From an uncultured Planctomycetia bacterium (GTDB taxonomy: Bacteria; Omnitrophota; Gorgyraeia; Duberdicusellales; 4484-171), in NCBI GenBank assembly GCA_964536865.1, contig CAZHYN010000013.1, positions 1 through 32,000 of the forward strand: 32,000 bases of DNA. The letters run 5' to 3'. Positions 7,758 through 23,124 of the stretch are shown in pieces. Within the stretch, counting starts at the first letter, position 1. The number at the start of each line of letters is the position of its first letter. The notes beneath the pieces were generated by a model. It was given only the letters and a program-made list of their open reading frames with translations, ran no database searches and was not told the origin of the DNA. The translations under genes and the position numbers were made by a program.

Positions 7758-7758
7758 G

Positions 7759-8166: not shown

Positions 8167-8167
8167 A

Positions 8168-10049: not shown

Positions 10050-10131
10050 ATAAAGGAGAAAAACGAAACCTTTTTAAATATTTTTTACTCTTAAATCCCT
10101 AAATAATTTCCTACCTAAGAAGGGAATTATC

Positions 10132-10160
10132 TTGACACTTAAATATCTTGCTTGTAGAAT
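10132..10160 (+). promoter_or_regulatory. Sigma70-type promoter for the pilMN-O-P block (TTGACA-17-TAGAAT)
   Basis: TTGACA 10132..10137, TAGAAT 10155..10160, ATG 10170 (9-nt gap, no SD). Confidence 0.45.
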
Positions 10161-10169
10161 TTAAAATGA

Positions 10170-11927
10170 ATGAAAGAAAAAAAAATCCCGCCTTTTTCTA
10201 AAAAGAAAAGTGCCTTTTCAGAAGTTGCCTCTCTGATTAAAGGTTTTTTTGCTCTTACTTCTAGTACTATTGGAATAGATATAGGAGAAGGGTATATTAA
10301 GATTGTTCAATTCCAGAGGACTCGCAAAGGGTACACTATTAATGATTATAGAATAAGAGCTATCCCTTTTAAGGTGAAGGATAACCAGAGAGAAAAAGAA
10401 AAATTCATAAAAGAGTTCATTGCTGAATTTATCTCTCAATCTAGAATAAAAACTTCTCTAGGGAGAATTGCTATAAGAGGGAGTGGAGTATTCATCTTTT
10501 CCCTCCTTATGCCTTTACTTCCTGAGAAAGACTTACGAGGAGCGATAGGAATAGAGTTAAAGAAAAGATTACCTTACCAGATAGATTTCGCTAACGTTCA
10601 CTTTGACTATGTCATAACCGAACAATTAGTGGGAGAGACTTCTCAAGTCTTTGTTACCTGTGTTGCTGTAGATAATAAGGTTCTGGATAAGTACTTAGAT
10701 TTTTTGAAAGGATTCGGTCTTCGTCCGGAAGTGATAAATACAGACGTTGATGCTTTAGGCAACTTAGTTGAATTCATAGGTGAAGATCAGTATGTGGGAG
10801 TACTCGATATGGGAGCTAGAGATAGCTGTTTAAATTTCTATAAAAAGGGGACTCCTCAGTTTGCTCGAGAAATACCCATAGGGGGAGAACATATTACTGA
10901 AGGAGTTTTAAAAGCAATCGCAAGTTTAGGAGGTAATCCTTCTTTTGAAGACGCAGAAAATTTCAAAAGGCACTGTGGGATTCCTATGCGGGAGGAGGCT
11001 TACATTGATTTCTATACTGATTTTGGGGCATTGAAAGGTAATCAAATAACCACGGCAGTAAGGCCGATACTAGAGAGGTTAATTACAGAGGTATCACGGA
11101 CAGTAAATTTCTATATCCGTGCCTACAAGTTAGAGCAACTAGATACTCTCTACATTACCGGGGGAACATCACGCACCAGGAACATCGATAAGATTCTTTC
11201 CGCTAATTTAAAAAATCTTCCTATTAAGCGAATAGAGAAATTAGAACCTCTAAAGGTAGTGAAGAGTTGGTTTGTTACCGATGTTTTTAGACACGAGTTA
11301 GGGATAGAAGAAGCGGTATCTCATTTAGCAGTGGCTTTTGGACTTTGTCTTCGTAAAGGAGGGAAGATAAACATCATTCCTCCCCGAGAAAAAATGGAAC
11401 AGAAGGCATTATTTTTAATGTTCCTTACTCGCACTGTGTTTCCCTTTATTCTTTTTCTGACTCTAGGCTTCTATGCCTTCTTCTATGGGAAGTATCTTTT
11501 ATATAATATAATTATTGCTCGTCTTCAAGGGCAGGCTCAGAAGATTGCTCCTCTAACTAAGGAGATCGAAAGTTATCTTTCGGTTAAAAAAATATATGAA
11601 GAAAGAGAATCTCTTTTAAAAAAGGCTATAGGAGAACAGCCGTTGTGGTGGGGAATATTAAAAGAGTTAAGTAATATTACTCCTAAGGAGATTGTTCTGC
11701 ATAGTTTAGAAATAAAACCTGTCCTTCCTTCTTCTAATAGGATTCTTACTCTTACAGGAGAAGCTATAGCTAAGGTTACTAATCTTGATCTAGTAATAGC
11801 GGAATTTACTCTGAACCTAAATGAATCTCCCTTTTTTAGAAAGGCTAATTTAGTATCTACTGAGAGGGATGTGTCTTCATCTCTTCCTAGAGCGAAATTT
11901 AAAATAACCTGTGAGCTTGTATATTAA
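10170..11927 (+). CDS. pilM: Fused PilM (actin-like ATPase fold) - PilN protein (GspL-like topology)
   Basis: N-terminal TIGIDIGEGYIKIVQF and the later LDMGARDS / YITGGTSR are PilM/FtsA-like phosphate motifs. After AFGLCLRKGG comes the PilN hallmark INIIPPRE, one TM segment (LFLMFLTRTVFPFILFLTLGFYAFFYG), a coiled segment and a PilN-like periplasmic domain. Confidence 0.8.
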   Translation: MKEKKIPPFSKKKSAFSEVASLIKGFFALTSSTIGIDIGEGYIKIVQFQRTRKGYTINDYRIRAIPFKVKDNQREKEKFIKEFIAEFISQSRIKTSLGRIAIRGSGVFIFSLLMPLLPEKDLRGAIGIELKKRLPYQIDFANVHFDYVITEQLVGETSQVFVTCVAVDNKVLDKYLDFLKGFGLRPEVINTDVDALGNLVEFIGEDQYVGVLDMGARDSCLNFYKKGTPQFAREIPIGGEHITEGVLKAIASLGGNPSFEDAENFKRHCGIPMREEAYIDFYTDFGALKGNQITTAVRPILERLITEVSRTVNFYIRAYKLEQLDTLYITGGTSRTRNIDKILSANLKNLPIKRIEKLEPLKVVKSWFVTDVFRHELGIEEAVSHLAVAFGLCLRKGGKINIIPPREKMEQKALFLMFLTRTVFPFILFLTLGFYAFFYGKYLLYNIIIARLQGQAQKIAPLTKEIESYLSVKKIYEERESLLKKAIGEQPLWWGILKELSNITPKEIVLHSLEIKPVLPSSNRILTLTGEAIAKVTNLDLVIAEFTLNLNESPFFRKANLVSTERDVSSSLPRAKFKITCELVY

Positions 11928-11932
11928 GAATC

Positions 11933-12526
11933 ATGGAAGTTATAAAAGATAAGACTACTAAAGTAGCAGTAAACATAGGGATTTATATCGCTATTTTGGT
12001 TGTTTTCCACCTTTTTGTAGGTCGTCCAATATTTAGACTGGTAGATGGGAAAAAAAGTCGATACGAAGATTTCCAGAAAAGTTTACTTACTAAAGAAGAG
12101 TTGATAAAAGCTATCCCTAATCCTAACAAAGAAATTAGAGAAATTAAAGATAAGATAAAAGAGCTGGAAAAAAAATCCATCTCTCAGGAGAAACTTCCAA
12201 AGATTATTCAACAATTGACTAAGGAAAGCAGTAGATTGAATATAGAAATAATTTCTATAAGACCGGTGAAAGAACCACCTTTTAAAGAAGAGAATCTTTC
12301 CAAAGGAGTGAAGAAAGTTTATCTGGAGATAACTTTAAAAACCTCATATATAAATTTAGGTAATTATCTTAAAGCAATCGAGAAACTACCTATAATTTTT
12401 ACTATCGAATCTTTAGTAGTGAAAAGATTTGAGGAAACTAAAGAGAAGGATATCTCTAGAGAGGTTGGAAATAATCTTATTGCTAGTTTACTTATCAGTG
12501 GCTACAAGATAGAGAGTAGTCTTTAG
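11933..12526 (+). CDS. PilO/GspM-like bitopic alignment-complex protein
   Basis: 197 aa: short cytoplasmic N-terminus, one TM (VAVNIGIYIAILVVFHLFV), a coiled segment and a small C-terminal domain. Lies directly after pilMN. Confidence 0.55.
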   Translation: MEVIKDKTTKVAVNIGIYIAILVVFHLFVGRPIFRLVDGKKSRYEDFQKSLLTKEELIKAIPNPNKEIREIKDKIKELEKKSISQEKLPKIIQQLTKESSRLNIEIISIRPVKEPPFKEENLSKGVKKVYLEITLKTSYINLGNYLKAIEKLPIIFTIESLVVKRFEETKEKDISREVGNNLIASLLISGYKIESSL

Positions 12527-12532
12527 AGAAAA

Positions 12533-12997
12533 ATGGACAAAAAAAGAATTGAATTGATTATTACTTTGGGATTGATAGTAATCTTTATCTTTGTATTGGC
12601 AGGAAATCTTAAGCCTAAGAAACCCAAGCAAAAATTACCCCCCTCTCCTGAAGTCTCTGAAAAAGAAAGGAGTGCACCTATACCTAAAAAGAAGATAGAA
12701 AAGATTTTAAGAGCCTCTCCTCAGGAGATAGAAAAACAGAAAAATCGAGCGCAACTTAGTTGGGGGAGAGATCCTTTTTTCTCCTCTTTCCTAGTTAAAA
12801 AAGAGATCCCCAAAACCACTCCTCTTACTCTAAAAGGCGTAACTATAGGAAAAGATAAGAAAGGTTATGCATTTATCAATGATGAAATTGTCACTATTGG
12901 GGATACTATCGAAGGGTATCAGGTAATAGAAATTCAGAAAAACAAAGTTATTTTAAAAAGAGATAACGAACTTTTTTACTTAACCCTCCCTTATTAG
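12533..12997 (+). CDS. PilP/GspC-position protein: TM anchor, Pro/Lys-rich linker, small C-terminal beta-rich domain
   Basis: TM LIITLGLIVIFIFVLAG, linker KPKKPKQKLPPSPEVSEKERSAPIPKKK, C-terminus LKGVTIGKDKKGYAFINDEIVTIGDTIEGYQVIEIQKNKVILK. Called by position between the pilO-like gene and the secretin, not by a diagnostic motif. Confidence 0.45.
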   Translation: MDKKRIELIITLGLIVIFIFVLAGNLKPKKPKQKLPPSPEVSEKERSAPIPKKKIEKILRASPQEIEKQKNRAQLSWGRDPFFSSFLVKKEIPKTTPLTLKGVTIGKDKKGYAFINDEIVTIGDTIEGYQVIEIQKNKVILKRDNELFYLTLPY

Positions 12998-13017
12998 AAA
13001 GAAGCTAAAAGAGAGCT

Positions 13018-13045
13018 TTGACTATTTTTCTTTTTAAGTTATAAT
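13018..13045 (+). promoter_or_regulatory. Sigma70-type promoter for the secretin-to-PilZ operon (TTGACT-16-TATAAT)
   Basis: TTGACT 13018..13023, TATAAT 13040..13045, ATG 13053 (7-nt gap). TTG at 13050 is the ORF-track start. Confidence 0.5.
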
Positions 13046-13052
13046 AAAGTTG

Positions 13053-14534
13053 ATGAGAAAAATTGTTCTACTCCTTTTACTTCTTGGAGGGGGGCATTTT
13101 TTTATTAGTTTAGCTCAAACCCCTCAGGCTTTTCAAAAGGAGTCAGAGATTATAGAGTATTTGGAGTTTAGGGAAGTAGATATCAAGGATGCTCTAAGAC
13201 AACTCGCCAAACAGTATAATTTAAACATTGTATTTTCTGAGTCAGTAAAGGGATTGATTACTCTCCGTTTACATAATGTTACTGTAGAAGAAGCTTTAGA
13301 CTCTATTATTACTATCAATGGATTTGTTTATACTAAGAAAGGAAGTGTAATTAAGGTGACTACTCCTGAAGAAGTAAAAAAAGAAAGTAAGCAGACCAGA
13401 GTTTTTAAGTTGTATAATGCTGATGCTTCTAAACTTAAAGAGACTATAAAAAAAGTTCTTTCCTCTGAGGGGACCGTTGAGGCAGATGAACGTTCTAACT
13501 CCCTGATTATCACCGATAATCCTGCGGTAATAAGTAAAATTGAAAGTATGCTACCTTCCTTGGATGAGGCTTCTAAGCAAGTTCTGATTGAAGCTCGATT
13601 TATCGAAACTTCCTTAGGAACTACAGAAAAGTTAGGGATAGATTGGACGATTAATGCTGTAGCTAAAGCTTCTAAAAGACCTACTACTTTTCCTTTTCGT
13701 AAATGGGGTTCGGATAAAGATATGTATCCAGTGCCTTCTTATACCTCCGAATATGATAGCACTACAGGAACATGGAGCATAACTAGCGATTTTCCTGCAG
13801 GTGGTGAGGGTTATTTTTTTCCTACTTTCCCTCATCGCTTGGGTTCTTTTCCTATGGTGGGGGCAGATAAATTTACTTTCGGGACATTAGACTTTACTCA
13901 GTTTCAAGCAGTGTTAGATTTTCTTAAGACAAAAACTGATTCTAAACTTATCTCATCACCCCGGATAGTTACTATGGATAACAAGCGAGCAGAAATTTAT
14001 ATAGGCAAAGCCCGCCCCATTCCTACATTTGAATATAATTCTGAGACGGGGGAGTACCAAATTACAGGATTTGAAGAAAAAATTGAGGGAGTAATTCTTA
14101 CCGTAACTCCTCAGATAAAAAAAGTAGGAGATAAATATTATATAAAGCTAAGATTGAAGCCAAAAGTTACTACTTTTTCTAATGAAACAGTATCTTTTAC
14201 TAATCTGGGTTTTGAATATCCTTTGCTTTCTGAACGGTACACCGATACCGAAGTAATGATTGAAGATAATCAGACTATTGTTATTGGGGGGTTAATAGAG
14301 ACTAAGAGAACAGAAACTATTCATAAGGTTCCTTTCTTAGGGGATTTACCTTTGTTAGGTCTTCTTTTTCGACATAAAGAAATAAATCCTGATGCTAAAT
14401 CAGAGCTTATAATCTTTGTTACTGCCAGAGTTGTTAGAGAAGATGAGGGTCCACTCTTAGCTTACAGGAGTAACCTCATTACTTCCCCTCCTCACCCATT
14501 TAAGCTAAATTTAAGAGAGATCACAGTAAAATGA
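13053..14534 (+). CDS. pilQ: Secretin (PilQ/GspD family) outer-membrane channel
   Basis: Signal peptide MRKIVLLLLLLGGGHFFISLAQ. N0/N1-like domains (DIKDALRQLAKQYNLNIVF...; NSLIITDNPAVISKIESML). C-terminal secretin signature VPFLGDLPLLGLLFRHKE. Confidence 0.9.
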   Translation: MRKIVLLLLLLGGGHFFISLAQTPQAFQKESEIIEYLEFREVDIKDALRQLAKQYNLNIVFSESVKGLITLRLHNVTVEEALDSIITINGFVYTKKGSVIKVTTPEEVKKESKQTRVFKLYNADASKLKETIKKVLSSEGTVEADERSNSLIITDNPAVISKIESMLPSLDEASKQVLIEARFIETSLGTTEKLGIDWTINAVAKASKRPTTFPFRKWGSDKDMYPVPSYTSEYDSTTGTWSITSDFPAGGEGYFFPTFPHRLGSFPMVGADKFTFGTLDFTQFQAVLDFLKTKTDSKLISSPRIVTMDNKRAEIYIGKARPIPTFEYNSETGEYQITGFEEKIEGVILTVTPQIKKVGDKYYIKLRLKPKVTTFSNETVSFTNLGFEYPLLSERYTDTEVMIEDNQTIVIGGLIETKRTETIHKVPFLGDLPLLGLLFRHKEINPDAKSELIIFVTARVVREDEGPLLAYRSNLITSPPHPFKLNLREITVK

Positions 14535-15892
14535 AAAGAATCATCTTTTTCCTCTCTTTCTTTTTCATTCTTTCCCTCTTCCTTTTATTTCTCTTTTTTT
14601 CATTTTATCAGTCAAATATTTTTCAAGAAAGTATAGCTAACTTAGAAGAAGGGTTAAAAAGAGTTAGCTACCTTTTTGTGGAATCTAAATTATTTAATAA
14701 AAAATTAAAGGGAGATAATGAAAAGCTTTCTCAGGAGTTGAAAAAGTTAAGTGAAGAGAATACTTCCTTAAAAGAGCATATAGAAGAGTTAGACGAACGT
14801 ATCACTACCCTTAAAGATACTAATAGAGAGCTAATTAGAAAAGTTAAAGAGTTGACTGAAGAAAACAGACGTTTAAAAGAAGCTTTAGCTAAGTTGAAAG
14901 CTCAGTTACCTAAAGTATCCTTTAAGAAAGGAGAGAAAGTTTGTCCTGGTTTGGGAGGAGTGAGTTTAGATCCTAAAGAGAGAAAATATATTGAGTTCAT
15001 TATTCAGAGTATCTACAAGGAGTTAGATTCTTTAGGGACCAATGTGAATAGATTAGCTCAAGATGCTTCATCCTATAAGAACAAATTCTTAAGAAAAGAT
15101 GGGGAACTTAAAAAGAAGATTGAAGAAATTGAAAGTCTTCATAAGGAGCTTCAGCATTTTAGAGAGGAGAATATGGAGATGTTAGCTAAGCTGGGCACTT
15201 TAGAAAAAGAAAAGCAAAAGTATGTGGAAAAGATAAATTTACTTAGTAAGGAAAATCAAAATTTGAAAGATAATTTAAACAGCTTTAAGAAAGAAAAAGA
15301 GGTAATGATGTCCTACATAGAGGATTTGAAAAAGAGAAGTACTTTTACAAAGTCGGAGAGGAAGAATTTAGAGAAGACTATAAATGACTTAAAGAGTGAA
15401 CTCCAGCTTAAGATAGAGCATATAAAATCTCTGGAAAGAGAAATTGTTCAATTGAAGGAGGATTATCAAAGGACTATTAATCAGCATGAGATAGCTAAGG
15501 GGAAAATAGAAGAAGTAGAGAGAGAAATGGAGAGAAGAGCGGACAGGATACTAAAACTGGAGAATGAATTGAGAAGTAAGGAGGTATCCATAAAGGAATT
15601 AAATAGCAAACTAAAGAGACAGTTAAAGGAATTAGCTAGTTTAAGAGAATCTGTAGTAAAAGTTAGATTAGAAAATGCTTCTCTCTATAAGGAATTGGAG
15701 GCTAAAGAAGCAGCTTTTAATTCTTTAAAAAAACAGTTAGAAAAAATAGGTCAGTTAAGTACACAGTTTAGAGAGCAAGTTAACAAAGTTTCACAGTTAT
15801 TTACCTCTCCAGAGGAAAGTCAAAAGGAGGAAGAACCTGGCGAGAAAAAGATAGAGGTGGAGATAGAATCTATAGAAAGTAAAGAGAAGTAA
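14531..15892 (+). CDS. TM-anchored long coiled-coil protein, function unknown, translationally coupled to the secretin
   Basis: ATGA overlap with the secretin stop (14531..14534). N-terminal TM RIIFFLSFFFILSLFLLFLFFSF, then about 420 aa of E/K/L-rich heptad-like sequence, interrupted around CPGLGGVSLDPKERKYIEFIIQSIYKELDS. Confidence 0.7.
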   Translation: MKRIIFFLSFFFILSLFLLFLFFSFYQSNIFQESIANLEEGLKRVSYLFVESKLFNKKLKGDNEKLSQELKKLSEENTSLKEHIEELDERITTLKDTNRELIRKVKELTEENRRLKEALAKLKAQLPKVSFKKGEKVCPGLGGVSLDPKERKYIEFIIQSIYKELDSLGTNVNRLAQDASSYKNKFLRKDGELKKKIEEIESLHKELQHFREENMEMLAKLGTLEKEKQKYVEKINLLSKENQNLKDNLNSFKKEKEVMMSYIEDLKKRSTFTKSERKNLEKTINDLKSELQLKIEHIKSLEREIVQLKEDYQRTINQHEIAKGKIEEVEREMERRADRILKLENELRSKEVSIKELNSKLKRQLKELASLRESVVKVRLENASLYKELEAKEAAFNSLKKQLEKIGQLSTQFREQVNKVSQLFTSPEESQKEEEPGEKKIEVEIESIESKEK

Positions 15893-15901
15893 GTATTAAG
15901 T

Positions 15902-16621
15902 ATGAAGAGGAGAACTACTGATTGTTTTTATTTTGTTATTCGTAGGATTATTGAGTTTTTGGTCTTAGGGATGTTTCTTTTGTTGTTATTTGGAATTCTC
16001 TGTGAGAGAGGGGTGTACTGTAAAGAAGATAATGATAGCATGGCGATTGCTAATACCTACTACTTAAAAGGTAAAGAGTTTCTTCTTAAAGGAGAGTATC
16101 AGAAGGCTGACGAAGCTTTTAAGAAAGCGGAGAAGATTTTAAATAAAAAATCTTCTAAAAAAAAGGAAAGGCTCTCTCTAAGAAAGTCGGATTCCAAAAG
16201 AAGGAAGATTTCTTCTAAGATATCACCCTCTAATTTAGAGGCAGAGAGAAGGAAGATAGAGACTATTCTGGAGGCAGCAAAACAAGCTTACTTTGAAGGG
16301 AATTTAGAGTTAGCTTTAAGGCTGTATACCAGAGTGTTAAGAAAGTATCCTACCGATGCTGATCTTTACTACAATTTAGGAGTTATTTATCTAAAAAAAG
16401 CGGATTACCTTAGTGCTGCTGAGGAATTTAAAAGAGCAATTCTTTTAGATCCTAGCGATGCTGATGCTTACTATAATTTAGGAGTGATCTATGAGAATTT
16501 TCTCAATGATAAGGAAAAGGCTATTAGTCACTACCAGAGTTATTTGAAATTGTGCACTTCTGAAGAAGAAAAGAGGGAGATTAAAAGATGGATAGAGAGG
16601 CTTAGAAGGGAAGGACGATGA
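15902..16621 (+). CDS. Membrane-anchored TPR-repeat protein (possible PilF/PilW/Tgl-like secretin pilotin)
   Basis: TPR repeats (ADLYYNLGVIYLKKADYLSAAEEFKRAILLDPSDADAYYNLGVIYENF). Hydrophobic N-terminus with Cys residues but no canonical lipobox. Lies between the secretin block and pilB, with an ATGA overlap onto pilB. Confidence 0.7.
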   Translation: MKRRTTDCFYFVIRRIIEFLVLGMFLLLLFGILCERGVYCKEDNDSMAIANTYYLKGKEFLLKGEYQKADEAFKKAEKILNKKSSKKKERLSLRKSDSKRRKISSKISPSNLEAERRKIETILEAAKQAYFEGNLELALRLYTRVLRKYPTDADLYYNLGVIYLKKADYLSAAEEFKRAILLDPSDADAYYNLGVIYENFLNDKEKAISHYQSYLKLCTSEEEKREIKRWIERLRREGR

Positions 16622-18435
16622 ATGACGAGGAGTTAAAAGATATTCTTTTGCAAGCGAATTTACTCACTCCTCAGGATATTGAGAGGGCAATTGAGGAGAC
16701 TAAAAAGCTTAAGCGCCCTCTAGAACAGGTAATTTTGGATATGCGCCTTTTAGACAGAGAAGTTCTTTACAGAACCATAGCTCAAAAACTAGAAGTAGAG
16801 TATAAAAAAATAGATAATTTAACTGTTCCTAAAGAGCTGTTAAGAATATATCCTGAAGATTTAGCCCGTTCTACTAAGTCTGTACCTTTGTTTATAAAAG
16901 AAGGGACTCTTCATGTTGCTTTAGCTAATCCACAAGATTTTACTTTAACTGATCAGATTCAGTTATTTACCAACTATCCTCTCTTTGTGTATCTCTCTTC
17001 CCCTCAGGAGATTGAAGAAGCTATTAACCGTATTTATCGTGAAGAGAAAGAGGAGATACTTTTTACTGATTTAGAAACACCTCCTACGGTGAGCCCTAAA
17101 AAAGAAGAGGAGAGTAAGCCTTTAAGTGAGACTACCTCTATCATAAAGGTGGTAGATTTACTTATCACTCAAGCAGTAAGAGACAGAGCTAGTGATATTC
17201 ATATTGAGCCAGAGGAAAGTGTTACTAGGATAAGATTTAGAATAGATGGAATTCTTCACGAAGTACCTCCTCCTCCTAAAGAGTGGGAATCAGCTATAAT
17301 TTCTCGGATAAAAGTCTTAGCAGGGATGGATATTGCAGAGTCCCGTTCTCCTCAGGATGGTCATTTTCAGGCCACTATAGATGATAAACTTATTGATTTC
17401 CGTGTTTCTACCTTACCTACTATCCATGGGGAAAATGTAGTATTAAGGCTGTTGGATACTGCTTCCGTAGCTATAGGTTTGGAAAAGTTAGGGTTTACCA
17501 CCCCTCAAGACTTAAAGAAGTATGAAGAGCTAATTACCAAACCTTATGGAATAATTCTTTCTACAGGTCCTACAGGATGTGGTAAGACTACCACTTTATA
17601 CTCTGCTTTAATGAGAATAAATACCATGGATAAAAATATTATTACTTTAGAAGATCCTGTGGAGTATCGTTTAGGTTTAATAAGGCAGGTTCAGGTTAAT
17701 CCTAAAGCAGGAATTACCTTTGCTAATGGTTTGAGAGCAATCCTTCGTCAGGACCCCGATGTAATAATGGTAGGAGAGATAAGAGATTTAGAGACTGCAC
17801 GAATGGCTGTTCAAGCAGCGTTAACAGGACATCTAGTATTTTCTACCCTTCATACTAACGATGCTCCCAGTGCAGTCGCTCGCCTGATAGATATGGGAGT
17901 AGAGGACTTTTTGGTTGCTGCGTCTTTAATAGGAGTTATGGCTCAGAGACTGGTGAGGGTTATCTGTCTTAAGTGCAAAGAAGCGTATAAACCCTCACCT
18001 ACCATACTTAAGAAGTGGCGGATAGAAAAAGAAGATGTGGAAGTTTACCGAGCTGAAGGGTGTCCGGAGTGCAAAGGAACTGGTTACCGAGGTAGAACAG
18101 GAATATTTGAACTAATGGTGGTTGATGATGAAATAAAAGAGATGATTAATCAGGGAGCTTCCACAGTAGCTTTAAGAAAAAAAGCTCAAGAGAAAGGAAT
18201 GCGTCTTCTTTGGGAAGATGGGAGAGAAAAAGTTTTGAGAGGGATCACTACCTTTGAGGAAGTAGCTAGGGTTTGTGAGGAACAAATCGAAGTTAAACCT
18301 GCAAAGATAGAAGTAAAGCCTTACTTAGGAAAAGAAATAGAAGTAAAAAGAGCTACTGTTAGAGAGGTGAAAATTGACCCTAAGGCTTTAGAAGAGTACC
18401 GTGCCCGTATTGCTCGCTGGATGAAGAATGAGTAA
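16618..18435 (+). CDS. pilB: Type IV pilus assembly / T2SS ATPase (PilB/GspE family)
   Basis: N-terminal T2SSE_N-like domain. Walker A GPTGCGKTT, Asp box, Walker B DPDVIMVGEIRD, His box. Tetracysteine motif CLKC...CPEC. About 50 extra C-terminal residues. Confidence 0.92.
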   Translation: MNDEELKDILLQANLLTPQDIERAIEETKKLKRPLEQVILDMRLLDREVLYRTIAQKLEVEYKKIDNLTVPKELLRIYPEDLARSTKSVPLFIKEGTLHVALANPQDFTLTDQIQLFTNYPLFVYLSSPQEIEEAINRIYREEKEEILFTDLETPPTVSPKKEEESKPLSETTSIIKVVDLLITQAVRDRASDIHIEPEESVTRIRFRIDGILHEVPPPPKEWESAIISRIKVLAGMDIAESRSPQDGHFQATIDDKLIDFRVSTLPTIHGENVVLRLLDTASVAIGLEKLGFTTPQDLKKYEELITKPYGIILSTGPTGCGKTTTLYSALMRINTMDKNIITLEDPVEYRLGLIRQVQVNPKAGITFANGLRAILRQDPDVIMVGEIRDLETARMAVQAALTGHLVFSTLHTNDAPSAVARLIDMGVEDFLVAASLIGVMAQRLVRVICLKCKEAYKPSPTILKKWRIEKEDVEVYRAEGCPECKGTGYRGRTGIFELMVVDDEIKEMINQGASTVALRKKAQEKGMRLLWEDGREKVLRGITTFEEVARVCEEQIEVKPAKIEVKPYLGKEIEVKRATVREVKIDPKALEEYRARIARWMKNE

Positions 18436-18460
18436 AGTTAACTTTTTGTTAGTTTAAGCT

Positions 18461-19723
18461 ATGGGTATCTATATCTATAAAGCAGTTGATGCCAAAGGTA
18501 AGATAGTAAAGGGAAAGATCGAAGCACCTACAGAGACTGATGTTTCTATCCAATTAGCTAAGCTAGGGTATATTCCTATAAGTATAGGATTTAAGGGAGA
18601 AAAAGCTCCTCCTTTAAGAGAACGGTTATTTAAAAAAAGATTTCGTAGAACTTCTTCTCATGCTTTAGTAGTATTTACTCGGCAATTTGCTACTATGGTG
18701 AAGGCAGCGGTTCCCATTGTTGAGGGGTTAAAGGTACTGGCTGAGCAAGCCGAGGATGATAATTTAAAAGAAGCTCTTTTCAGAGTAATTGAAGATATAG
18801 AGGAGGGAAAGAAGCTATCCGAAGCCTTAACAAAACATCCCGGAGTATTTAGCCAGCTCTACGTTAATACTGTGGTAGCAGGGGAGGTAGGAGGAGTGTT
18901 AGATAAAGTTCTTTTAAGGTTAGCAAATGTTTTAGAGGAAGAACAAGAGATAAAAATGAATATGAAATCTGCACTAAGATACCCTATAATAGTAATGGTA
19001 GCTCTCATTATTGCTGTAATTATTCTCTCTGTAAGAGTGGTACCTACTTTTGCTAAAGTTTATTCTAGGATGAATATAAGCTTACCTCTTCCTACTCGGA
19101 TAATGATTCTTATGAGTAATTTTTTTCTCGGCCCCTGGAGAGACAGTTCTAACTTTTTGTTAAAAATTCTATGGTTTATGATTCTTCTTGGTATAGCTGT
19201 AGGGGCATTTTTATCTTTTAAATTATTCATAACTACTCCTGGAGGAAGACGTTGGTGGGATAATGCTAAATTTAGAATGTATATATTTGGGAAAATCTAT
19301 AAAAAAATAACTATGCTTAGGTTTGCTTCAATGCTCAATGTGCTTTATCAGGCAGGACTTCCCATTCTTAATATTCTGGATGTTGTAAAAATCACTATTG
19401 GGAACGTGGTGTTAGCTAAAGAGTTGGATAATGTAAAAAGGTTTGTAGCTGATGGTAAAGGAATTTCTGGAGGTCTTTTAGGTAGCAAATTATTTCCCCC
19501 ACTAGTTTCTTATATGGTCTCTGTAGGAGAAAAGGCAGGGGCATTATCTACTATGCTTGATTCTCTATGTGAGTACTATTCCTTAGAAGTAAGAACTTCT
19601 CTAAAAAACTTAACCTCTTTGATTGAGCCTATTATGACTTTAGTTTTAGGGGTAGTGATAGGAGGAATGGCTTTAGCGATATTCCTGCCTATGTGGAATT
19701 TGATTTCTATTATCCGAAGATAA
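18461..19723 (+). CDS. pilC: Type IV pilus / T2SS inner-membrane platform protein (PilC/GspF family)
   Basis: 420 aa with two repeated GspF-type cytoplasmic domains (FTRQFATMVKAAVPIVEGL; MLRFASMLNVLYQAGLPILNIL) and three TM segments. Directly follows pilB. Confidence 0.9.
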   Translation: MGIYIYKAVDAKGKIVKGKIEAPTETDVSIQLAKLGYIPISIGFKGEKAPPLRERLFKKRFRRTSSHALVVFTRQFATMVKAAVPIVEGLKVLAEQAEDDNLKEALFRVIEDIEEGKKLSEALTKHPGVFSQLYVNTVVAGEVGGVLDKVLLRLANVLEEEQEIKMNMKSALRYPIIVMVALIIAVIILSVRVVPTFAKVYSRMNISLPLPTRIMILMSNFFLGPWRDSSNFLLKILWFMILLGIAVGAFLSFKLFITTPGGRRWWDNAKFRMYIFGKIYKKITMLRFASMLNVLYQAGLPILNILDVVKITIGNVVLAKELDNVKRFVADGKGISGGLLGSKLFPPLVSYMVSVGEKAGALSTMLDSLCEYYSLEVRTSLKNLTSLIEPIMTLVLGVVIGGMALAIFLPMWNLISIIRR

Positions 19724-20533
19724 GTGATTTTTGGTTTTTTAATAGGAATAGTTATTCTAATAATTTATATTATTATCTCTTCCTGGTGGTGGAGAAGAAA
19801 ATTACATTTTTATGTTAAAAAATCTCGAGAAGAGGAAGCTAGACTCATTCATCTAGAGAAAATGGCCTCTTTAGGAACTTTAGCTGCTGGAGTAGCTCAT
19901 GAGATTAATAATCCTTTGACCTTTCTTCTTACTAATCTAGGACTCCTTTCTCACTATATAAAAGAGGAGAAGAGAGTCAAAGAAGAGTTACAAAAAGAAA
20001 TAAGTGTAATTTTAGATGAGTGTAACGAAGGAGTGAATAGAATAAAGAGGATTGTTCAAGATCTGCTTTCTTTTTCTCACCGCTCACGAGGTAAAAAAGT
20101 TTCTACAAACATCAATGAGTTGCTGGATGTAAGTATAAGAATTCTATGGAATGAGATAAAGTATAAGGTTGATATAGTAAAAAATTATGAAGCAGTAACT
20201 CCTCTTCGGATAGATCCTAATCAACTAAGTCAAGTATTTTTAAATATAATCATCAACGCTACTCATGCAGTAAAGAATAAAGGGACAATTTTTCTTTCTA
20301 CCCAAGAGAATGAGAAGGAATTTATCATTAAGGTTTCTGATACAGGAGAAGGAATTCCTAAAGAAGTTCTTCCCAAGATTTTTGAACCTTTCTTTACTAC
20401 TAAGGGAGGTACGGGTTTAGGACTCTATGTAAGCAAAAATATTGTGGAGAATATGGGGGGTAGGATAGAAGTAGAAACTCAATTGGGAGAGGGTAGTACA
20501 TTCACTATTTTTCTGCCTAAAGTTAAAAAATAA
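19724..20533 (+). CDS. Minimal histidine kinase (one TM, HisKA, HATPase_c; no recognisable sensor domain)
   Basis: H-box GVAHEINNPL, N-box NIIINATHA, G1 DTGEGI, G2 GGTGLGL. The GTG start abuts the pilC stop with no gap. Confidence 0.85.
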   Translation: MIFGFLIGIVILIIYIIISSWWWRRKLHFYVKKSREEEARLIHLEKMASLGTLAAGVAHEINNPLTFLLTNLGLLSHYIKEEKRVKEELQKEISVILDECNEGVNRIKRIVQDLLSFSHRSRGKKVSTNINELLDVSIRILWNEIKYKVDIVKNYEAVTPLRIDPNQLSQVFLNIIINATHAVKNKGTIFLSTQENEKEFIIKVSDTGEGIPKEVLPKIFEPFFTTKGGTGLGLYVSKNIVENMGGRIEVETQLGEGSTFTIFLPKVKK

Positions 20534-20554
20534 TTTCTTTAAGAGAAAAGTGCT

Positions 20555-20908
20555 ATGGGAGTAGAGAAAAGAAAGTATCCTAGGGTTAAGGTTAAGTTTT
20601 CCGTAGAGTATAGGGGGAAGAATGTTTGGCAAAACGCTGAGATTGACAATATCTCCAGAGGGGGGATGTTTATTGTTACGGAGAAGATAGAGCCACCAGG
20701 AACAAATATAGAGCTTATTTTTGAACTAGGAGAAAGTAAGAGGAAGATCCAAGCTCAAGGAGTAGTGGTGTGGACACGTACTCAATCTCAGCACAATCAT
20801 GAAGGTAGGCTTCTCCCTCAGGGTATGGGAGTCCAATTCACCAAAATTTTCCCTGGAGAAGCAGAAAATTTTTTGGCTGATTTAATAGAGAAGTGGAGAG
20901 ATGGATAA
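20555..20908 (+). CDS. Single-domain PilZ protein with intact c-di-GMP-binding motifs
   Basis: RxxxR = RKYPR and (D/N)xSxxG = NISRGG, at the canonical spacing near the N-terminus. 117 aa. Confidence 0.85.
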   Translation: MGVEKRKYPRVKVKFSVEYRGKNVWQNAEIDNISRGGMFIVTEKIEPPGTNIELIFELGESKRKIQAQGVVVWTRTQSQHNHEGRLLPQGMGVQFTKIFPGEAENFLADLIEKWRDG

Positions 20909-21473
20909 ACATACTATTCTCGTTGTAGATGATGAGCCTAATATAGTTTCTTCCCTAAAGAGGGTTCTTGCCTCCGAGGATAGAGAGATTTTATCTGCCT
21001 ATAGTGCTGAAGAGGCTTGGAGGCTTCTTCAAGAGAAGGGAGAAGTAGAGGTAATTATTTGTGATAATAAATTACCGGGAGCCTCTGGCGTAGAATTCCT
21101 TTCCAAAGTAAAAACTGCTCATCCCCACACAGTAAGAATTCTTATTACTGGTTATCCTGATTTGACCAGTGTTGCAGAGGCAATAGATAAGGCAGGCATC
21201 TGGCGGTACCTCTTAAAGCCTGTAGAGATAGAGGAGTTAAAAACTTTAGTAAACCAGGCTTTTGGTTACTATAGGATTTTAAAAGAAAATCAAATTCTTT
21301 TTGATATCGTTTGTCAACAAGCGGAGTGGCTTAAGGTATTAAGAGAAAAGTATCCTGAGATTGTGTCCCGGGAAGTAGAAGAAGGGAAGATAATTGATAT
21401 AGAATGGAGAGAAGCTTCTGACACAGTTAGAAAATTCATAGAAAAGTACTACCTTCACAAAAAAGGAGAATGA
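20901..21473 (+). CDS. Response regulator: receiver domain plus about 70 aa of uncharacterised C-terminal extension (no DNA-binding or enzymatic output recognised)
   Basis: ILVVDDEPNI, phospho-acceptor context IICDNKLPG, ILITGY, YLLKP. Overlaps the PilZ gene by 8 nt and the next gene by 4 nt (ATGA). Confidence 0.85.
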   Translation: MDKHTILVVDDEPNIVSSLKRVLASEDREILSAYSAEEAWRLLQEKGEVEVIICDNKLPGASGVEFLSKVKTAHPHTVRILITGYPDLTSVAEAIDKAGIWRYLLKPVEIEELKTLVNQAFGYYRILKENQILFDIVCQQAEWLKVLREKYPEIVSREVEEGKIIDIEWREASDTVRKFIEKYYLHKKGE

Positions 21474-22282
21474 AAGAGTTAGAAAAAAGATTGGTAAAAG
21501 AAGGATGGGTTACCTCTGCTCAACTTATAAAAGCTAAGGAAGAGCAGAAGAAAAAAAAGAAGAAATCCTTATTCTCTGTTTTAGTAACTTTGGGATATCT
21601 AAGTGAAGAGGATATTTACCTATTCTTTGCTCAGAGTGCTCAGATACCTTTTGTAAGGCCAGGCGATTATCTTTCAGATGAAGAACTTTTTAATCTTTTT
21701 TCCGAAGACTTCTATCGGGAGCATCTTTTTGTTCCTCTCTTTAGAATAGGAAATACTCTTTACATTGGGACTGCTAATCCCCTGGATACAGAGTTTATGG
21801 ATACCTTAAGGAAGCATACTAATTTAGATATCTTTCCTCTATTTGCCTCTCCTTCTTCTATCTTAGAGGCAATAAATCGTGTATTTGGGCCAGAGAAAGT
21901 ATACTTACAGTTAGAGGAGTTAGTTAGTTTCTCTCCTTCATTAAGTATACTACCCTTAGGAAGAGAATCTGAAAGGATAGTGATAAATACACCTGTAGAG
22001 TTTAAAGTTATTGACAAGAGGATAACTTTAGCATCTTCTCAATATCTAAAGGGAACTGCTTTGAATATTTCTCAAAGTGGTAAGGGGGTAGGGATAAGGA
22101 CTTTTCTTTTTCTTCCTTCTGGAGCAAAGATTCTTCTAAAGTTTCCTTCATTCGATCCTAATTGTGAATTAGAAGCAGAGATAACCCACTGCAGAATGGA
22201 ACAAGGTTATTATTTCTTAGGAGTGAAATTTCTCCAAACAAGAAAAGATTTATTAAGATATTTATTGGAAGAAAAAAAATAA
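21470..22282 (+). CDS. T2SSE_N (GspE/PilB/MshE N-terminal domain)-like :: PilZ fusion protein
   Basis: The N-terminus LEKRLVKEGWVTSAQLIKAKEEQKKKKKKSLFSVLVTLGYLSEEDIYLFFAQSAQIPF resembles the N-terminal domain of GspE/PilB/MshE ATPases. The C-terminus carries RxxxR (RESER) and (D/N)xSxxG (NISQSG) PilZ motifs. Confidence 0.7.
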   Translation: MKELEKRLVKEGWVTSAQLIKAKEEQKKKKKKSLFSVLVTLGYLSEEDIYLFFAQSAQIPFVRPGDYLSDEELFNLFSEDFYREHLFVPLFRIGNTLYIGTANPLDTEFMDTLRKHTNLDIFPLFASPSSILEAINRVFGPEKVYLQLEELVSFSPSLSILPLGRESERIVINTPVEFKVIDKRITLASSQYLKGTALNISQSGKGVGIRTFLFLPSGAKILLKFPSFDPNCELEAEITHCRMEQGYYFLGVKFLQTRKDLLRYLLEEKK

Positions 22283-22324
22283 TTTTCATAACTCTCTGAT
22301 ATTAAAGAGATAATGAAAGCGGAG

Positions 22325-22354
22325 TTGACAGAGCAGAATTTTATATGTTATACT
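22325..22354 (+). promoter_or_regulatory. Sigma70-type promoter with extended -10 driving the riboswitch leader
   Basis: TTGACA 22325..22330, an 18-nt spacer containing TG (22346..22347), TATACT 22349..22354. Confidence 0.5.
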
Positions 22355-22404
22355 TAAATTGAAGCTCTTTATATTAAGGATTTATACTTTTATTATACTA
22401 CTCG

Positions 22405-22572
22405 ACAAAGGCAAACTCGTGGTAACACGAGGGCGCAAAGCCGTGCGTCCCGCTCTTTCTAAGACCCAGATTAACAGGGGTTTGAAGTTAAAGTGCATAA
22501 GGGATGCAGAGGCAGGTAAACTGCAGGATTTAACTAGAAATATGAAAAGGGCGGGATAGGCAGGTTGCCGAA
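22405..22572 (+). promoter_or_regulatory. Candidate c-di-GMP-I (GEMM-I) riboswitch aptamer with a roughly 75-nt branched insertion in the second arm
   Basis: AAAGGCAAAC (22407..22416). A 6-bp hairpin CTCGTG-GTAA-CACGAG (22416..22431, GNRA loop). GGCGCAAAGCC (22432..22442). A 10-bp helix CCCGCTCTTT / AAAGGGCGGG (22449..22458 with 22546..22555). Tetraloop-receptor-like TCTAAG (22458..22463) opposite TATGA (22541..22545). The 3' closing segment ATAGGCAGGTTGCC (22556..22569) has TTGCC complementary to GGCAA. G+C is about 50% by hand count over 22401..22570, against AT-rich flanks. Confidence 0.68.
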
Positions 22573-22593
22573 AGTAGTATTTATTTTTTATTT

Positions 22594-22640
22594 AAGCCGA
22601 ACTACTTTAGCCTTTAGGAGAGTAGTTCGGCTTTTTTGTT
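22594..22640 (+). terminator. Intrinsic terminator (probable riboswitch expression platform)
   Basis: Perfect 13-bp stem AAGCCGAACTACT (22594..22606) / AGTAGTTCGGCTT (22621..22633), running into TTTTTTGTT. Confidence 0.8.
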
Positions 22641-22658
22641 CTCCGAGAGATAAAAAAC

Positions 22659-22687
22659 TTGACTTACTCTTAAAAAGCTGATATTCT
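22659..22687 (+). promoter_or_regulatory. Possible second promoter between the riboswitch terminator and the pilin gene (TTGACT-17-TATTCT)
   Basis: TTGACT 22659..22664, TATTCT 22682..22687. Followed by SD AAGGAGG (22697..22703) and ATG 22712. Confidence 0.35.
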
Positions 22688-22711
22688 TAATAAAGAAAGG
22701 AGGTGAGTAAG

Positions 22712-23071
22712 ATGCGCAGAGGTTTTACTCTTATTGAATTAATTATGATTATCGTTATCATTGGTATTTTAGCAGCTATTGCTATCCCTAAATTTATTGA
22801 CTTAAGAACTGATGCCCAAAAGGCTTCTTGTTTTGGTAGTGCTGCAGCAATTCAAACTGCTCTTTCTAACTATTATGCCCGCCAGGCTATAAAAGGAAGC
22901 CCTGGTTTTCCTAGCACCTTACATGATACATCCTTTACTAGTGAGTATTTCACTGAAGCTACTCTTCCTGATCATCCCAAAGGATGGGATTGGGATACCT
23001 ATTATAGCAGTAATACCGGGGCTCTTCATACTGGTAAAGGGGCAGATAGCGGAGCCTGTACAAACTTTTAA
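22712..23071 (+). CDS. pilA: Type IV major pilin (T4a-like prepilin)
   Basis: MRRG-FTLIELIMIIVIIGILAAIAIPKF: short basic leader, G-1, F+1, E+5, G14, P22. Strong SD AAGGAGG 8 nt upstream of ATG 22712. The ORF-track GTG at 22703 lies inside the SD, so it is disfavoured. Confidence 0.9.
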   Translation: MRRGFTLIELIMIIVIIGILAAIAIPKFIDLRTDAQKASCFGSAAAIQTALSNYYARQAIKGSPGFPSTLHDTSFTSEYFTEATLPDHPKGWDWDTYYSSNTGALHTGKGADSGACTNF

Positions 23072-23092
23072 TAGCTGAGTTCCTAAGACTAC

Positions 23093-23124
23093 ATAAACCC
23101 CGCTTTTTTAAAAGCGGGGTTTAT
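23093..23124. terminator. Hairpin terminator after pilA, possibly bidirectional
   Basis: ATAAACCCCGC (23093..23103), loop TTTTTTAAAA, GCGGGGTTTAT (23114..23124), followed by a T-rich run on the plus strand. The hairpin also encodes the last codons and the stop of the convergent minus-strand gene. Confidence 0.7.

Follow-up and report, generated by a model that had tools for sequence, protein, structure and literature searches.

A two-component and PilZ signalling set in an Omnitrophota type IV pilus operon combines known parts in a new way

Described regulators of the pilus motor and of pilin supply

In Myxococcus and Geobacter, pilS-pilR lie between pilC and pilA, and the kinase PilS senses the membrane pool of pilin. 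PilS has six transmembrane (TM) helices and a PAS domain, and PilR combines a receiver (REC) with a sigma54-interaction AAA+ domain and a Fis-type HTH domain. At the level of pilin supply, the major pilin gene pilA1 of C. difficile has a leader with a class II c-di-GMP riboswitch, an ON switch, and a terminator.

Several other systems act on the machine itself. PixA of M. xanthus, a PilZ-REC protein that regulates type IV pilus (T4P)-dependent motility, joins a canonical PilZ domain to a phosphorylatable receiver without any other output; it is a single orphan polypeptide encoded outside the pil operon, and acts on polarity (MglA) (PMC8316039). In the PilB-PilZ-FimX system of X. citri, PilZ contacts ND0 and ND1 of the MshEN-like N-domain of PilB, which has no c-di-GMP motif, while an accessory protein senses c-di-GMP, and the system governs PilB activity and localisation (PMC8389850). 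The output-less response regulator DrdR of X. campestris stimulates the ATPase activity of PilB and PilT, to which it binds (PMC13507683), and the PATAN-REC regulators of Synechocystis are receiver proteins acting on T4P motors (bioRxiv 10.1101/2021.06.11.447907). Together with PilG/PilH, these receivers control PilB/PilT by direct contact, with no DNA-binding or enzymatic output. Their architectures are double REC, PATAN-REC and bare CheY-like, their kinases are orphan or CheA-type, and none of their genes lies with PilZ genes between pilC and pilA. Finally, MshE and PilF GSPII carry paired 24-residue c-di-GMP-binding motifs, whose consensus is a tandem repeat of (R/K/L)LGxx(LVI)(LVI)xxG(LVI)(LVI)xxxxLxxxLxxQ (5HTL; PMC11731258). 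The signalling set of the Omnitrophota T4P operon described here is a new combination of such known parts.

Gene order and encoded proteins

The window, namely the whole 32-kb stretch of DNA that was analysed, carries pilB-pilC on the + strand, followed by genes for a histidine kinase (HK), a stand-alone PilZ protein, a response regulator (RR) and an MshEN-PilZ protein, and then by a riboswitch with its terminator and a pilin gene:

16618..18435, +, PilB-type extension ATPase, 605 aa, with MshEN N-domain and T2SSE; the presumed target of the module
18461..19723 (TAA), +, PilC/GspF-type platform protein, 420 aa; Pfam T2SSF 182 bits, NCBIfam GspF/PilC
19724-20533, +, HK, 269 aa; open reading frame with Pfam HisKA and HATPase_c
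20555-20908, +, stand-alone canonical PilZ protein, 117 aa; Pfam PilZ
20901-21473, +, RR, 190 aa, receiver and helical tail; Pfam Response_reg
21470-22282, +, MshEN-PilZ protein, 270 aa; Pfam MshEN and PilZ
22325..22354, +, sigma70-like promoter, TTGACA, 18-nt spacer, TG-TATACT; drives the riboswitch leader
22395..22580, +, c-di-GMP-I (GEMM-I) riboswitch aptamer including P1; Rfam covariance models
22594..22640, +, intrinsic terminator, about 15-bp stem and U-run; riboswitch expression platform
22659..22687, +, proximal promoter-like element, TTGACT, 17-nt spacer, TATTCT; 9/12 matches plus TG
22703..23071, +, major pilin; N_methyl 30 bits, PilA/GspG N-terminus, RBS AAGGAGG

PilB matched T2SSE with 466 bits and MshEN with 60.7 bits in Pfam, and reached about 588 bits with the PilB and GspE models of NCBIfam, both under the equivalog cut-offs. 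The ORF list and the junction sequences agree with the gene positions given in the preliminary description: the GTG start of the HK gene abuts the pilC stop, and the RR gene overlaps the PilZ gene by 8 nt and the MshEN-PilZ gene by 4 nt (ATGA). That account described HK, PilZ and RR correctly but, ending at 21473, omitted the MshEN-PilZ protein and the c-di-GMP riboswitch. It also regarded these genes as co-translated with the motor genes. The genes are seen to be tightly packed on one strand, with no internal terminator or strong promoter predicted; co-translation itself is presumed from the arrangement. A 66-aa ORF at 22359-22559 overlaps the riboswitch and was rejected as spurious.

The HK contains HisKA (residues 50-120) and HATPase_c (164-266) as its only Pfam domains, with an H-box of sequence AHEINNPL and all of the catalytic boxes. 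Since the domains fill the protein except for one TM helix predicted by hydropathy (residues 1-24) and about 25 linker residues before HisKA, a hidden sensor was ruled out. The absence of a sensor domain had been proposed before, and is indeed a family trait, as the best 120 homologues all have 232-297 aa with HisKA and HATPase only. In contrast, the suggestion that the kinase responds to the state of PilC or of the membrane found no support, the TM helix being conserved in hydrophobicity only. A better candidate for the kinase partner is a small protein with two TM helices, encoded beside the kinase in most relatives, although tblastn found no copy of this ORF, or of the AAA_22 gene of the relatives, in the window. 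The intramembrane-sensing kinases LiaS and BceS have two TM helices, a short extracytoplasmic loop and a membrane partner, whereas the HK here has a single TM helix that begins at residue 1.

In the RR, Pfam recognised only Response_reg (residues 6-117), in which the phosphorylation residues D10, D11, D55, T83 and K106 are invariant. The remaining tail (residues about 118-190) is conserved and helical, and also occurs in response regulators of Nitrospirota, Zixibacteria and Ignavibacteria. In the AF2 model (pLDDT 83), helix alpha5 continues to residue 150 and is followed by two short helices. The tail gave no Pfam match at E-values up to 10, Foldseek against the PDB returned matches to the receiver but none to the tail, and phmmer, run with the 73 tail residues on 1.84 billion representatives, recovered its own family only; two long proteins (1329 and 590 aa) also matched in multiple stretches, apparently as coiled-coil noise. 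A known output domain was thus ruled out, in line with the original proposal. The RR also aligned with NF053512, the model for RpfG/NosR-type REC-HD-GYP regulators, at 146.7 bits (E = 1e-42; residues 6-157 aligned to model positions 1-151 of 422), so that the first ~35 tail residues correspond to the helical linker common to these regulators. While the receiver and the linker are matched, the HD-GYP phosphodiesterase domain is missing: the RR ends at residue 190, has no HD or HD_5 match and scores far below the 400-bit cut-off.

The stand-alone PilZ protein scored 57.6 bits with PF07238 (gathering cut-off 22.5) and carries RKYPR and NISRGG, corresponding to the RxxxR and (D/N)xSxxG motifs, which bears out its description as canonical; both c-di-GMP motifs are intact in its orthologues (5/5 compared), and its score with TIGR02266 is 68.4 bits (cut-off 68.7). 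The MshEN-PilZ protein consists of a complete PilB-type N-domain (four-helix ND0 and alpha/beta ND1), a 26-aa disordered linker and a PilZ domain with the motifs RESER and NISQSG, likewise conserved in 5/5 orthologues, and scored 74.8 bits with MshEN (PF05157) and 30.0 bits with PilZ (cut-off 22.5). Foldseek matched its AF2 model (pLDDT 83.9) to MshEN of 5HTL (target-normalised TM-score 0.73), to PilF GSPII and, through its MshEN half, to the X. citri PilB N-domain 7LKO, and then to PilZ domains. The N-domains of PilB and of the MshEN-PilZ protein thus have the fold of MshE and PilF GSPII, whereas the paired binding motifs are degenerate in these loci. Each motif retains 4-8 of the 11 key positions (7/11 and 7/11 in PilB); R/K/L at the first position and G3 are nearly always missing, and most motifs also lack G10. 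Likewise, the MshEN domains reached 30.8 and 34.4 bits with NF053729, the cut-off of which is 38. Judged by their sequences, both PilZ domains are of the canonical, predicted c-di-GMP-binding type.

The pilin leader

The sigma70-like promoter upstream of the aptamer is the best promoter-like site within 16000-23200 (11/12 matches plus TG), and is kept in the related locus L086. The aptamer scored 37.1 bits with RF01051 (gathering score 35) and 58.7 bits with the clan member RF03167 (gathering score 59), the latter match running end to end (22401-22573) around a 96-nt insertion. Its second hairpin bears a branched, lineage-specific insertion of roughly 90 nt, which the same aptamer in L086 lacks. 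It keeps GGCAAAC and CAAAG, which we take to hold the equivalents of G20 and A47 of the Vc2 structure. Aptamers also lie 5' of the pilin gene in L010 (RF01051, 44.9 bits) and L006 (RF03167, 59.0 bits), and the aptamer-terminator arrangement is repeated in L086, L010 and L006; the order promoter, aptamer, terminator and pilin was found in four loci. No riboswitch reached the gathering score in L002-L005, L007-L009 and L011-L014, several of which leave no room for it between the MshEN-PilZ and pilin genes; it is thus absent from most related loci.

The 5' arm of the terminator, ACUACUUU, is complementary to the 3' strand of P1, AAAGUAGU, and no nucleotides are shared by P1 and the terminator. 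Unconstrained co-transcriptional folds, from which the riboswitch logic was drawn, predict an OFF switch for the pilin, the direction being read from folding alone and the ligand specificity being likewise a prediction. The terminator is far stabler than the 8-bp anti-terminator, and the proximal promoter-like element, conserved in L086 and L006 and similar in L010, lies downstream, between the terminator and the pilin RBS; the regulatory weight of the riboswitch is therefore uncertain. The arrangement resembles that of C. difficile pilA1 in placing a c-di-GMP riboswitch and a terminator in the leader of a major pilin gene, but differs in the riboswitch class (GEMM-I), the roughly 90-nt insertion, the predicted OFF direction and the phylum. 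The true start of the pilin is probably the ATG at 22712, giving MRRG followed by FTLIELIMIIVIIGILAAIAIP.

Conservation, domain fusions and mode of action

The order PilC, HK, (small ORF), PilZ, RR, MshEN-PilZ and pilin was found again in about 16 Omnitrophota loci (RR identity 42-83%), which were gathered via RR similarity and are hence biased towards receiver-containing neighbours. The placement of HK, PilZ and RR behind pilC, noted in the preliminary description, thus recurs in the synteny survey, and its recurrence indicates that the gene arrangement is not due to chance. In 16/16 loci, the RR gene is followed by the MshEN-PilZ gene, whose start codon often overlaps the RR stop codon. Of 11 loci, 8 have a PilZ-RR overlap of exactly 8 nt. 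Twelve loci encode both HK and PilZ, whereas L007-L009 have neither. Since both are dispensable in this sublineage, the core of the module is RR and MshEN-PilZ rather than HK-PilZ-RR, and phosphorylation by the HK is not essential to this core.

Outside Omnitrophota, eight PilB-like ATPases of 742-829 aa carry an N-terminal receiver and linker, followed within about 10 residues by MshEN; their hosts are Nitrospirota, Desulfosarcina, Marinobacter, Rhodoferax, Hydrogenophilus and others. The fused receivers match the Omnitrophota RR profile from position 3 to about 149 with 102-136 bits, and a HisKA kinase is encoded in the same locus beside each of the eight. In the Nitrospirota locus L022, the receiver of the 810-aa fusion is 33% identical to the RR described here, and the adjoining kinase is 36% identical to our HK over the whole cytoplasmic part. 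Furthermore, in the Nitrospirota loci L021, L022 and L058, the ATPase is followed by a 185-191-aa response regulator of the Omnitrophota RR family, tail included.

These comparisons, together with the precedents of PixA and X. citri (PMC8316039; PMC8389850), support the earlier idea of control by protein contact integrated with c-di-GMP, although we infer every interaction from gene order and domain fusions. DrdR is a further precedent, for an output-less response regulator that contacts the motor ATPases. The signalling set most likely acts on the pilus motor through direct contact between proteins. As a tentative and more detailed reading, to which we give a probability of roughly 45%, HK/RR phosphorylation and c-di-GMP would converge on MshEN-type domains that control PilB, while the riboswitch tunes the pilin supply. 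The membrane-anchored, sensor-less kinase would phosphorylate the RR, and since the latter has no enzymatic or DNA-binding output, its targets would be MshEN-type N-domains, contacted by the receiver and the helical tail and belonging to the co-expressed MshEN-PilZ protein or to PilB, or to both. The two canonical PilZ domains, rather than the degenerate MshEN motifs, would receive the c-di-GMP input. The stand-alone PilZ protein and the RR may represent a split version of the PixA-type PilZ-REC, with the same order of parts; unlike in PixA, there are two proteins, the RR has a helical tail and the cognate kinase adjoins. PilZ may possibly also work with the kinase. The MshEN-PilZ protein, a paralogue of the PilB N-domain, could respond to c-di-GMP and RR~P by either joining PilB or competing with it where PilB docks (PilM/PilC), and would thereby set the pilus extension activity. 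In comparison with X. citri, both PilZ domains are canonical, a paralogue of the PilB N-domain is fused to one of them, no FimX is present, and a kinase/RR pair lies in the operon. Separately, the c-di-GMP-I riboswitch and terminator of the pilin leader would adjust the pilin supply, with OFF as the predicted direction. Several observations count against this explanation: a REC-MshEN-PilZ triple fusion was not found in the 15 homologue clusters of MshEN-PilZ, the distal RR tail (150-190), which is the most family-specific part, lies outside the fused-receiver alignment, L007-L009 are without HK and PilZ, and most related loci are without the riboswitch.

The position of HK and RR between pilC and pilA is that of pilS-pilR, the kinase core resembles the NtrB-type kinases AtoS and ZraS, and the RR receiver is 39-42% identical to that of the NtrC-family HupR. 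The pair might thus be a reduced PilS/PilR, in which the TM helix of the kinase senses the membrane pilin pool and the RR controls pilin expression indirectly. However, domain content largely refutes this identity, as the 190-aa RR has neither an AAA+/sigma54 nor an HTH domain, and the kinase has only one TM helix and no PAS. The TM sequence is, in addition, not conserved, though the pilin N-terminus is nearly invariant. A search for the sigma54 -24/-12 promoter TGGCAC-N5-TTGCW with up to 2 mismatches gave no match within 19724-22712, and the pilin gene instead has the sigma70-like promoter and the riboswitch. We thus consider a reduced PilS/PilR highly improbable, and the distinction from PilS/PilR drawn in the preliminary description holds. 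It is also rather unlikely that the two-component pair mainly tunes c-di-GMP turnover, with the RR receiver and linker pairing or competing with REC-GGDEF or REC-HD-GYP enzymes, as a heterodimer partner or phosphate sink, and with PilZ, MshEN-PilZ and the riboswitch reading the resulting level. Such a role would suit the best family match of the RR, a REC-HD-GYP receiver plus linker, as well as the REC-GGDEF gene that flanks the locus in L004 and L005, and probably also in L010, where a 319-aa gene containing a receiver has a comparable position, and two REC-HD-GYP genes in the Nitrospirota operon. Domain searches, on the other hand, found no GGDEF, EAL or HD-GYP genes in the 32-kb window, the constant neighbour of the RR is MshEN-PilZ and not an enzyme, and receivers of the RR subfamily are fused directly to PilB-like ATPases.

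The two-input reading also has a variant that assigns PilZ another target: c-di-GMP-bound PilZ would bind the kinase or the RR receiver and block or promote phosphotransfer, and the RR would then act on the motor. In P. aeruginosa, the PilZ adaptor HapZ acts on SagS in such gating. This would account for the PilZ gene lying between those of HK and RR, for the strong conservation of its 8-nt overlap with the RR gene and for the shared presence and loss of HK and PilZ, and PixA shows that PilZ and REC are able to act as a single unit. Still, the joint loss was probably one evolutionary event, and the PilZ proteins of Xanthomonas and Pseudomonas target PilB and no kinase, which makes gating of the phosphorelay a doubtful explanation.

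Returning to control through MshEN-type domains, a further proposal is possible, if still unlikely: RR and MshEN-PilZ may together be the split counterpart of REC-MshEN-T2SSE pilus and secretion ATPases, which would form a widespread and so far undescribed class regulated by phosphorylation. In Omnitrophota, the regulatory half would have become detached and joined to PilZ, yielding a free decoy N-domain on which RR~P and c-di-GMP converge and which gates the access of PilB to PilM/PilC. If true, this gating would be a principle of motor control not yet shown in any T4P system, and in the REC-MshEN-T2SSE class a receiver of the RpfG-like subfamily would control the motor via the MshEN N-domain. 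Since REC-MshEN-ATPase fusions also occur in several other phyla, PilB/GspE-type ATPases may be regulated in this way more generally; we found no published description of such regulation in the literature searched.

Omnitrophota are abundant, uncultivated bacteria that are often ultra-small and have been proposed to live as predators or in dependence on a host, and pili are probably central to their attachment and movement. The locus would provide them with a compact in-operon circuit, in which a kinase acts on the RR alongside two PilZ receptors and a riboswitch, and its small, expressible proteins would allow tests of the joint control of the PilB motor by phosphorylation and c-di-GMP.

Gene order and conservation of the regulatory module

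The window, from a Candidatus Omnitrophota contig, has a low GC content (~35%), its nearest protein homologues carry Omnitrophica/Omnitrophota names, and a type IV pilus cluster with all genes on the + strand occupies positions 6268-23071. The cluster encodes minor pilins, a PilM-PilN fusion, PilO, a PilP-like protein, a secretin, a coiled-coil protein, a TPR protein, PilB and PilC, followed by a histidine kinase (HK), a PilZ protein, a response regulator (RR), a protein combining MshEN and PilZ domains (MshEN-PilZ), and then the major pilin.

Features of the pilus cluster and its surroundings
10170-11927 (+), PilM and PilN as one fused 585-aa protein (PilM_2 35-396, PilN 496-583)
19724-20533 (+), HK
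20555-20908 (+), PilZ protein
20901-21473 (+), RR
21470-22282 (+), MshEN-PilZ
22395-22640 (+), riboswitch and strong terminator in the pilin leader, with a ~90-nt branched insertion in the second hairpin
22659-22687 (+), second promoter-like element (TTGACT, 17-nt spacer, TATTCT)
22703-23071 (+), major pilin
23108-25000 (-), multi-TM and TPR protein, 630 aa
24990-26969 (-), neighbouring multi-TM and TPR protein, 659 aa

The coordinates and junctions of the preliminary description proved exact when the ORFs and junction sequences were checked: the kinase GTG start lies directly behind the pilC stop (TAA, 19721-19723), PilZ and RR overlap by 8 nt, and RR and the next gene overlap by 4 nt. The MshEN-PilZ content of this next gene, like the riboswitch described below, was not part of that description.

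Loci were sampled by contig look-ups, a one-genome-per-species scan, and our own HMMs applied to ORFs from 85 fetched loci. The order PilB-(AAA_22)-PilC-HK-(small two-TM ORF)-PilZ-RR-MshEN-PilZ-pilin was found in ~16 Omnitrophota loci, some in bins labelled 'Planctomycetia', with RR identities of 42-83%. The pilC-HK-PilZ-RR arrangement pointed out earlier thus recurs, but in three of the loci (L007-L009) neither the kinase nor PilZ is present and the order reads PilC-small ORF-RR-MshEN-PilZ. RR is followed by MshEN-PilZ in every one of the ~16, and the exact 8-nt PilZ/RR overlap is kept in 8 of the 11 loci having both genes. The small ORF is missing in the window and in its closest relative, L086, and AAA_22 is missing in these two and in L011. 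In most relatives (L002-L005, L009, L010, L013), the AAA_22 gene, encoding an ExeA-like ATPase of ~280 aa, lies between pilB and pilC.

The PilM-PilN fusion was also found in related loci. The 630- and 659-aa TPR proteins share a ~150-aa identical segment, encoded by at least 300 nt of 100% identity (24437-24736 versus 26412-26711), for which recent duplication, gene conversion and an assembly artefact are possible explanations. Since a comparable pair lies behind the pilin genes of L004, the two proteins may have a pilus-related role such as pilin modification.

A minimal kinase and a receiver with a family-specific tail

The HK (269 aa) consists of a single TM helix from residue 1, a linker of ~25 residues, HisKA (50-120) and HATPase_c (164-266), a layout that leaves no space for a sensor domain and bears out its description as a sensor-less, one-TM kinase. 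This is a family trait: each of the top 120 homologues has HisKA and HATPase only, at a length of 232-297 aa. The catalytic residues of the HK and the acceptor residues of the RR are all present. The TM helix begins at residue 1 in all five orthologues compared, after correction of a mis-called start in L004; its sequence is not conserved among them. It had been suggested that the kinase senses the state of PilC or of the membrane, and the lack of conservation in the helix speaks against PilC or pilin being recognised specifically within the membrane.

A conserved two-TM protein of 65-72 aa (MK.VY.(V/L)GDD(F/L)F...) is encoded in 13 Omnitrophota loci, either between the kinase and PilZ or between PilC and RR (L002 7315-7515; L003 7169-7372 and 7777-7977; L004 8645-8845; L005 7211-7426; also L006-L014), and tblastn found no match to it in the window or L086. 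It is a candidate membrane partner of the sensor-less kinase in the relatives encoding it.

The RR comprises a receiver (6-117), with invariant D10, D11, D55, T83 and K106, and a tail of ~70 residues that matched no Pfam model even at E = 10. In its AlphaFold model (pLDDT 83), helix α5 extends to residue 150 and is followed by two short, lower-confidence helices, and a Foldseek search of the PDB returned receiver domains only (HupR, 39-42% identity; an HD-domain RR receiver; NtrC1; DctD). Calling the RR 'output-less', as was done earlier, is therefore right insofar as no known output domain is present. The RR is nevertheless no bare CheY: it belongs to a distinct REC-plus-tail family. A phmmer search with the tail alone retrieved, from 1.84 billion representatives, nine proteins, essentially all of its own family. 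N130, L133, P152 and Y183 of the tail are invariant, and R131, Q139, Q140, W143, E169 and F179 nearly so. The first ~35 tail residues match the linker helix found in REC-HD-GYP regulators of the RpfG/NosR type (NF053512: RR residues 6-157 align to positions 1-151 of 422). Identity with PilS/PilR, from which the module had been distinguished before, was rejected, as all three defining features tested fail.

MshEN domains and receiver-fused ATPases

The PilZ protein was confirmed as canonical (57.6 bits; RKYPR, NISRGG). The MshEN-PilZ model (pLDDT 83.9) shows a complete PilB-type N-domain, made of a four-helix bundle and an α/β subdomain, and a 26-residue disordered linker leading to a PilZ barrel with RESER and NISQSG. 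Foldseek hits for the N-terminal half were V. cholerae MshEN (5HTL), the Thermus PilF GSPII domains and the X. citri PilB N-domain (7LKO); those for the C-terminal half were PilZ domains with c-di-GMP bound. Compared with the published MshEN binding motif (PMC11731258), the domains of PilB and MshEN-PilZ from five loci keep only 4-8 of 11 key positions per motif, and they score under the NCBIfam motif cut-off. The MshEN c-di-GMP motifs thus appear degenerate, and the two PilZ domains are canonical.

The same combination of receiver and tail is also seen in RRs of Nitrospirota, Zixibacteria and Ignavibacteria. The fetched loci, which were gathered by similarity to RR and are hence biased towards receiver-containing neighbours, contain eight long PilB-like ATPases (742-829 aa), and each of these bears such a receiver (RR-profile positions 3-~149, 102-136 bits). 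They are L021 4667-7156, L022 7535-9967 and L058 6438-8897, together with those in L076, L079, L065, L029 and L030; the hosts are Nitrospirota, Desulfosarcina, Marinobacter, Rhodoferax, Hydrogenophilus and one further proteobacterium. MshEN starts at most ~10 residues after the receiver part, and every locus has a HisKA kinase nearby. The RR-to-MshEN-PilZ gene order thus mirrors a widespread REC-MshEN fusion.

The Nitrospirota fusions lie in an operon with two REC-HD-GYP proteins, a REC-PAS protein, an Arf-like GTPase, a small RR of the window RR's family and a DUF6901 protein. In L022, these are arranged as a 710-aa large kinase, REC-PAS, two REC-HD-GYP and the GTPase (genes 1-4), a kinase 36% identical to the window HK and the 810-aa REC-MshEN-T2SSE ATPase with a C-terminal zinc ribbon (genes 5-6), and the RR and DUF6901 protein (genes 7-8). 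The receiver and linker of this ATPase are 33% identical to window RR residues 5-146.

The pilin leader and a proposed mechanism

The 420-nt gap before the pilin gene contains a c-di-GMP-I riboswitch (Rfam RF01051, 37.1 bits versus a cut-off of 35); the clan member RF03167 aligns end to end over 22401-22573 (58.7 versus 59) with a 96-nt insertion in the second hairpin, which folds as a branched extension with an 11-bp closing stem. L086, whose RR is 83% identical, has a near-identical aptamer with a short hairpin instead of the insertion. The top σ70-like promoter of the region lies directly upstream (11/12 matches plus TG), and a terminator with a ~15-bp stem starts 14 nt after P1. Riboswitches also precede the pilin gene in L086, L010 and L006, each with a terminator behind the aptamer; none reached the gathering score in the remaining related loci. 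No nucleotides are shared between P1 (22395-22402 with 22573-22580) and the terminator (22594-22640), and both form in the full-length fold; in the co-transcriptional fold up to 22620, AAAGUAGU (22571-22578) on the P1 side can pair with the terminator 5' arm ACUACUUU (22603-22610). From these modelled folds we infer an OFF switch.

L086 and L006 conserve the second promoter-like element, which lies behind the terminator and ahead of the pilin RBS, and L010 has a similar one. The element may make pilin transcription riboswitch-independent, or the riboswitch unit may be a separate short transcript. A 66-aa TTG-start ORF (22359-22559, +) overlapping the aptamer is almost certainly no gene. Just downstream of the pilin region, L004 (15044-16003, -) and L005 (10446-11384, -) encode a REC-GGDEF protein, a possible local c-di-GMP source and second kinase substrate; a receiver-containing 319-aa gene similarly placed in L010 (12413-13372, -) is probably another, and the window has none.

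The gene coupling of the module is conserved, and the riboswitch comes with a promoter and terminator. As for the interactions, all of which we infer, the kinase would phosphorylate the RR, which would work by contact with MshEN-type domains, either in MshEN-PilZ or in the PilB N-domain, and c-di-GMP would enter through the PilZ domains. MshEN-PilZ, as a putative paralogue of the PilB N-domain, would join PilB or compete with it at the platform, and the riboswitch would act as an OFF switch. The closest systems in working are Xanthomonas PilB-PilZ-FimX, in which the MshEN-like N-domain of a PilB without the c-di-GMP motif is bound by PilZ and is proposed to contact PilM through a second surface (PMC8389850); PixA of M. 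xanthus, a c-di-GMP-binding PilZ-REC protein with a regulatory role in T4P-dependent motility (PMC8316039); and DrdR, an RR without an output domain that binds PilB and PilT and raises the ATPase activity of both (PMC13507683). The architecture of the module is unlike each of them.

Our literature searches turned up no paper on how pili are regulated in Omnitrophota, nor any on receiver-fused PilB/GspE ATPases. The novelty lies in a conserved, phylum-level, in-operon arrangement of known domain types, with two family-specific proteins, the REC-tail RR and MshEN-PilZ. The parts are familiar, but the hypothesis is specific and small soluble proteins suffice for testing it, and the module links to undescribed REC-MshEN-ATPase fusions.
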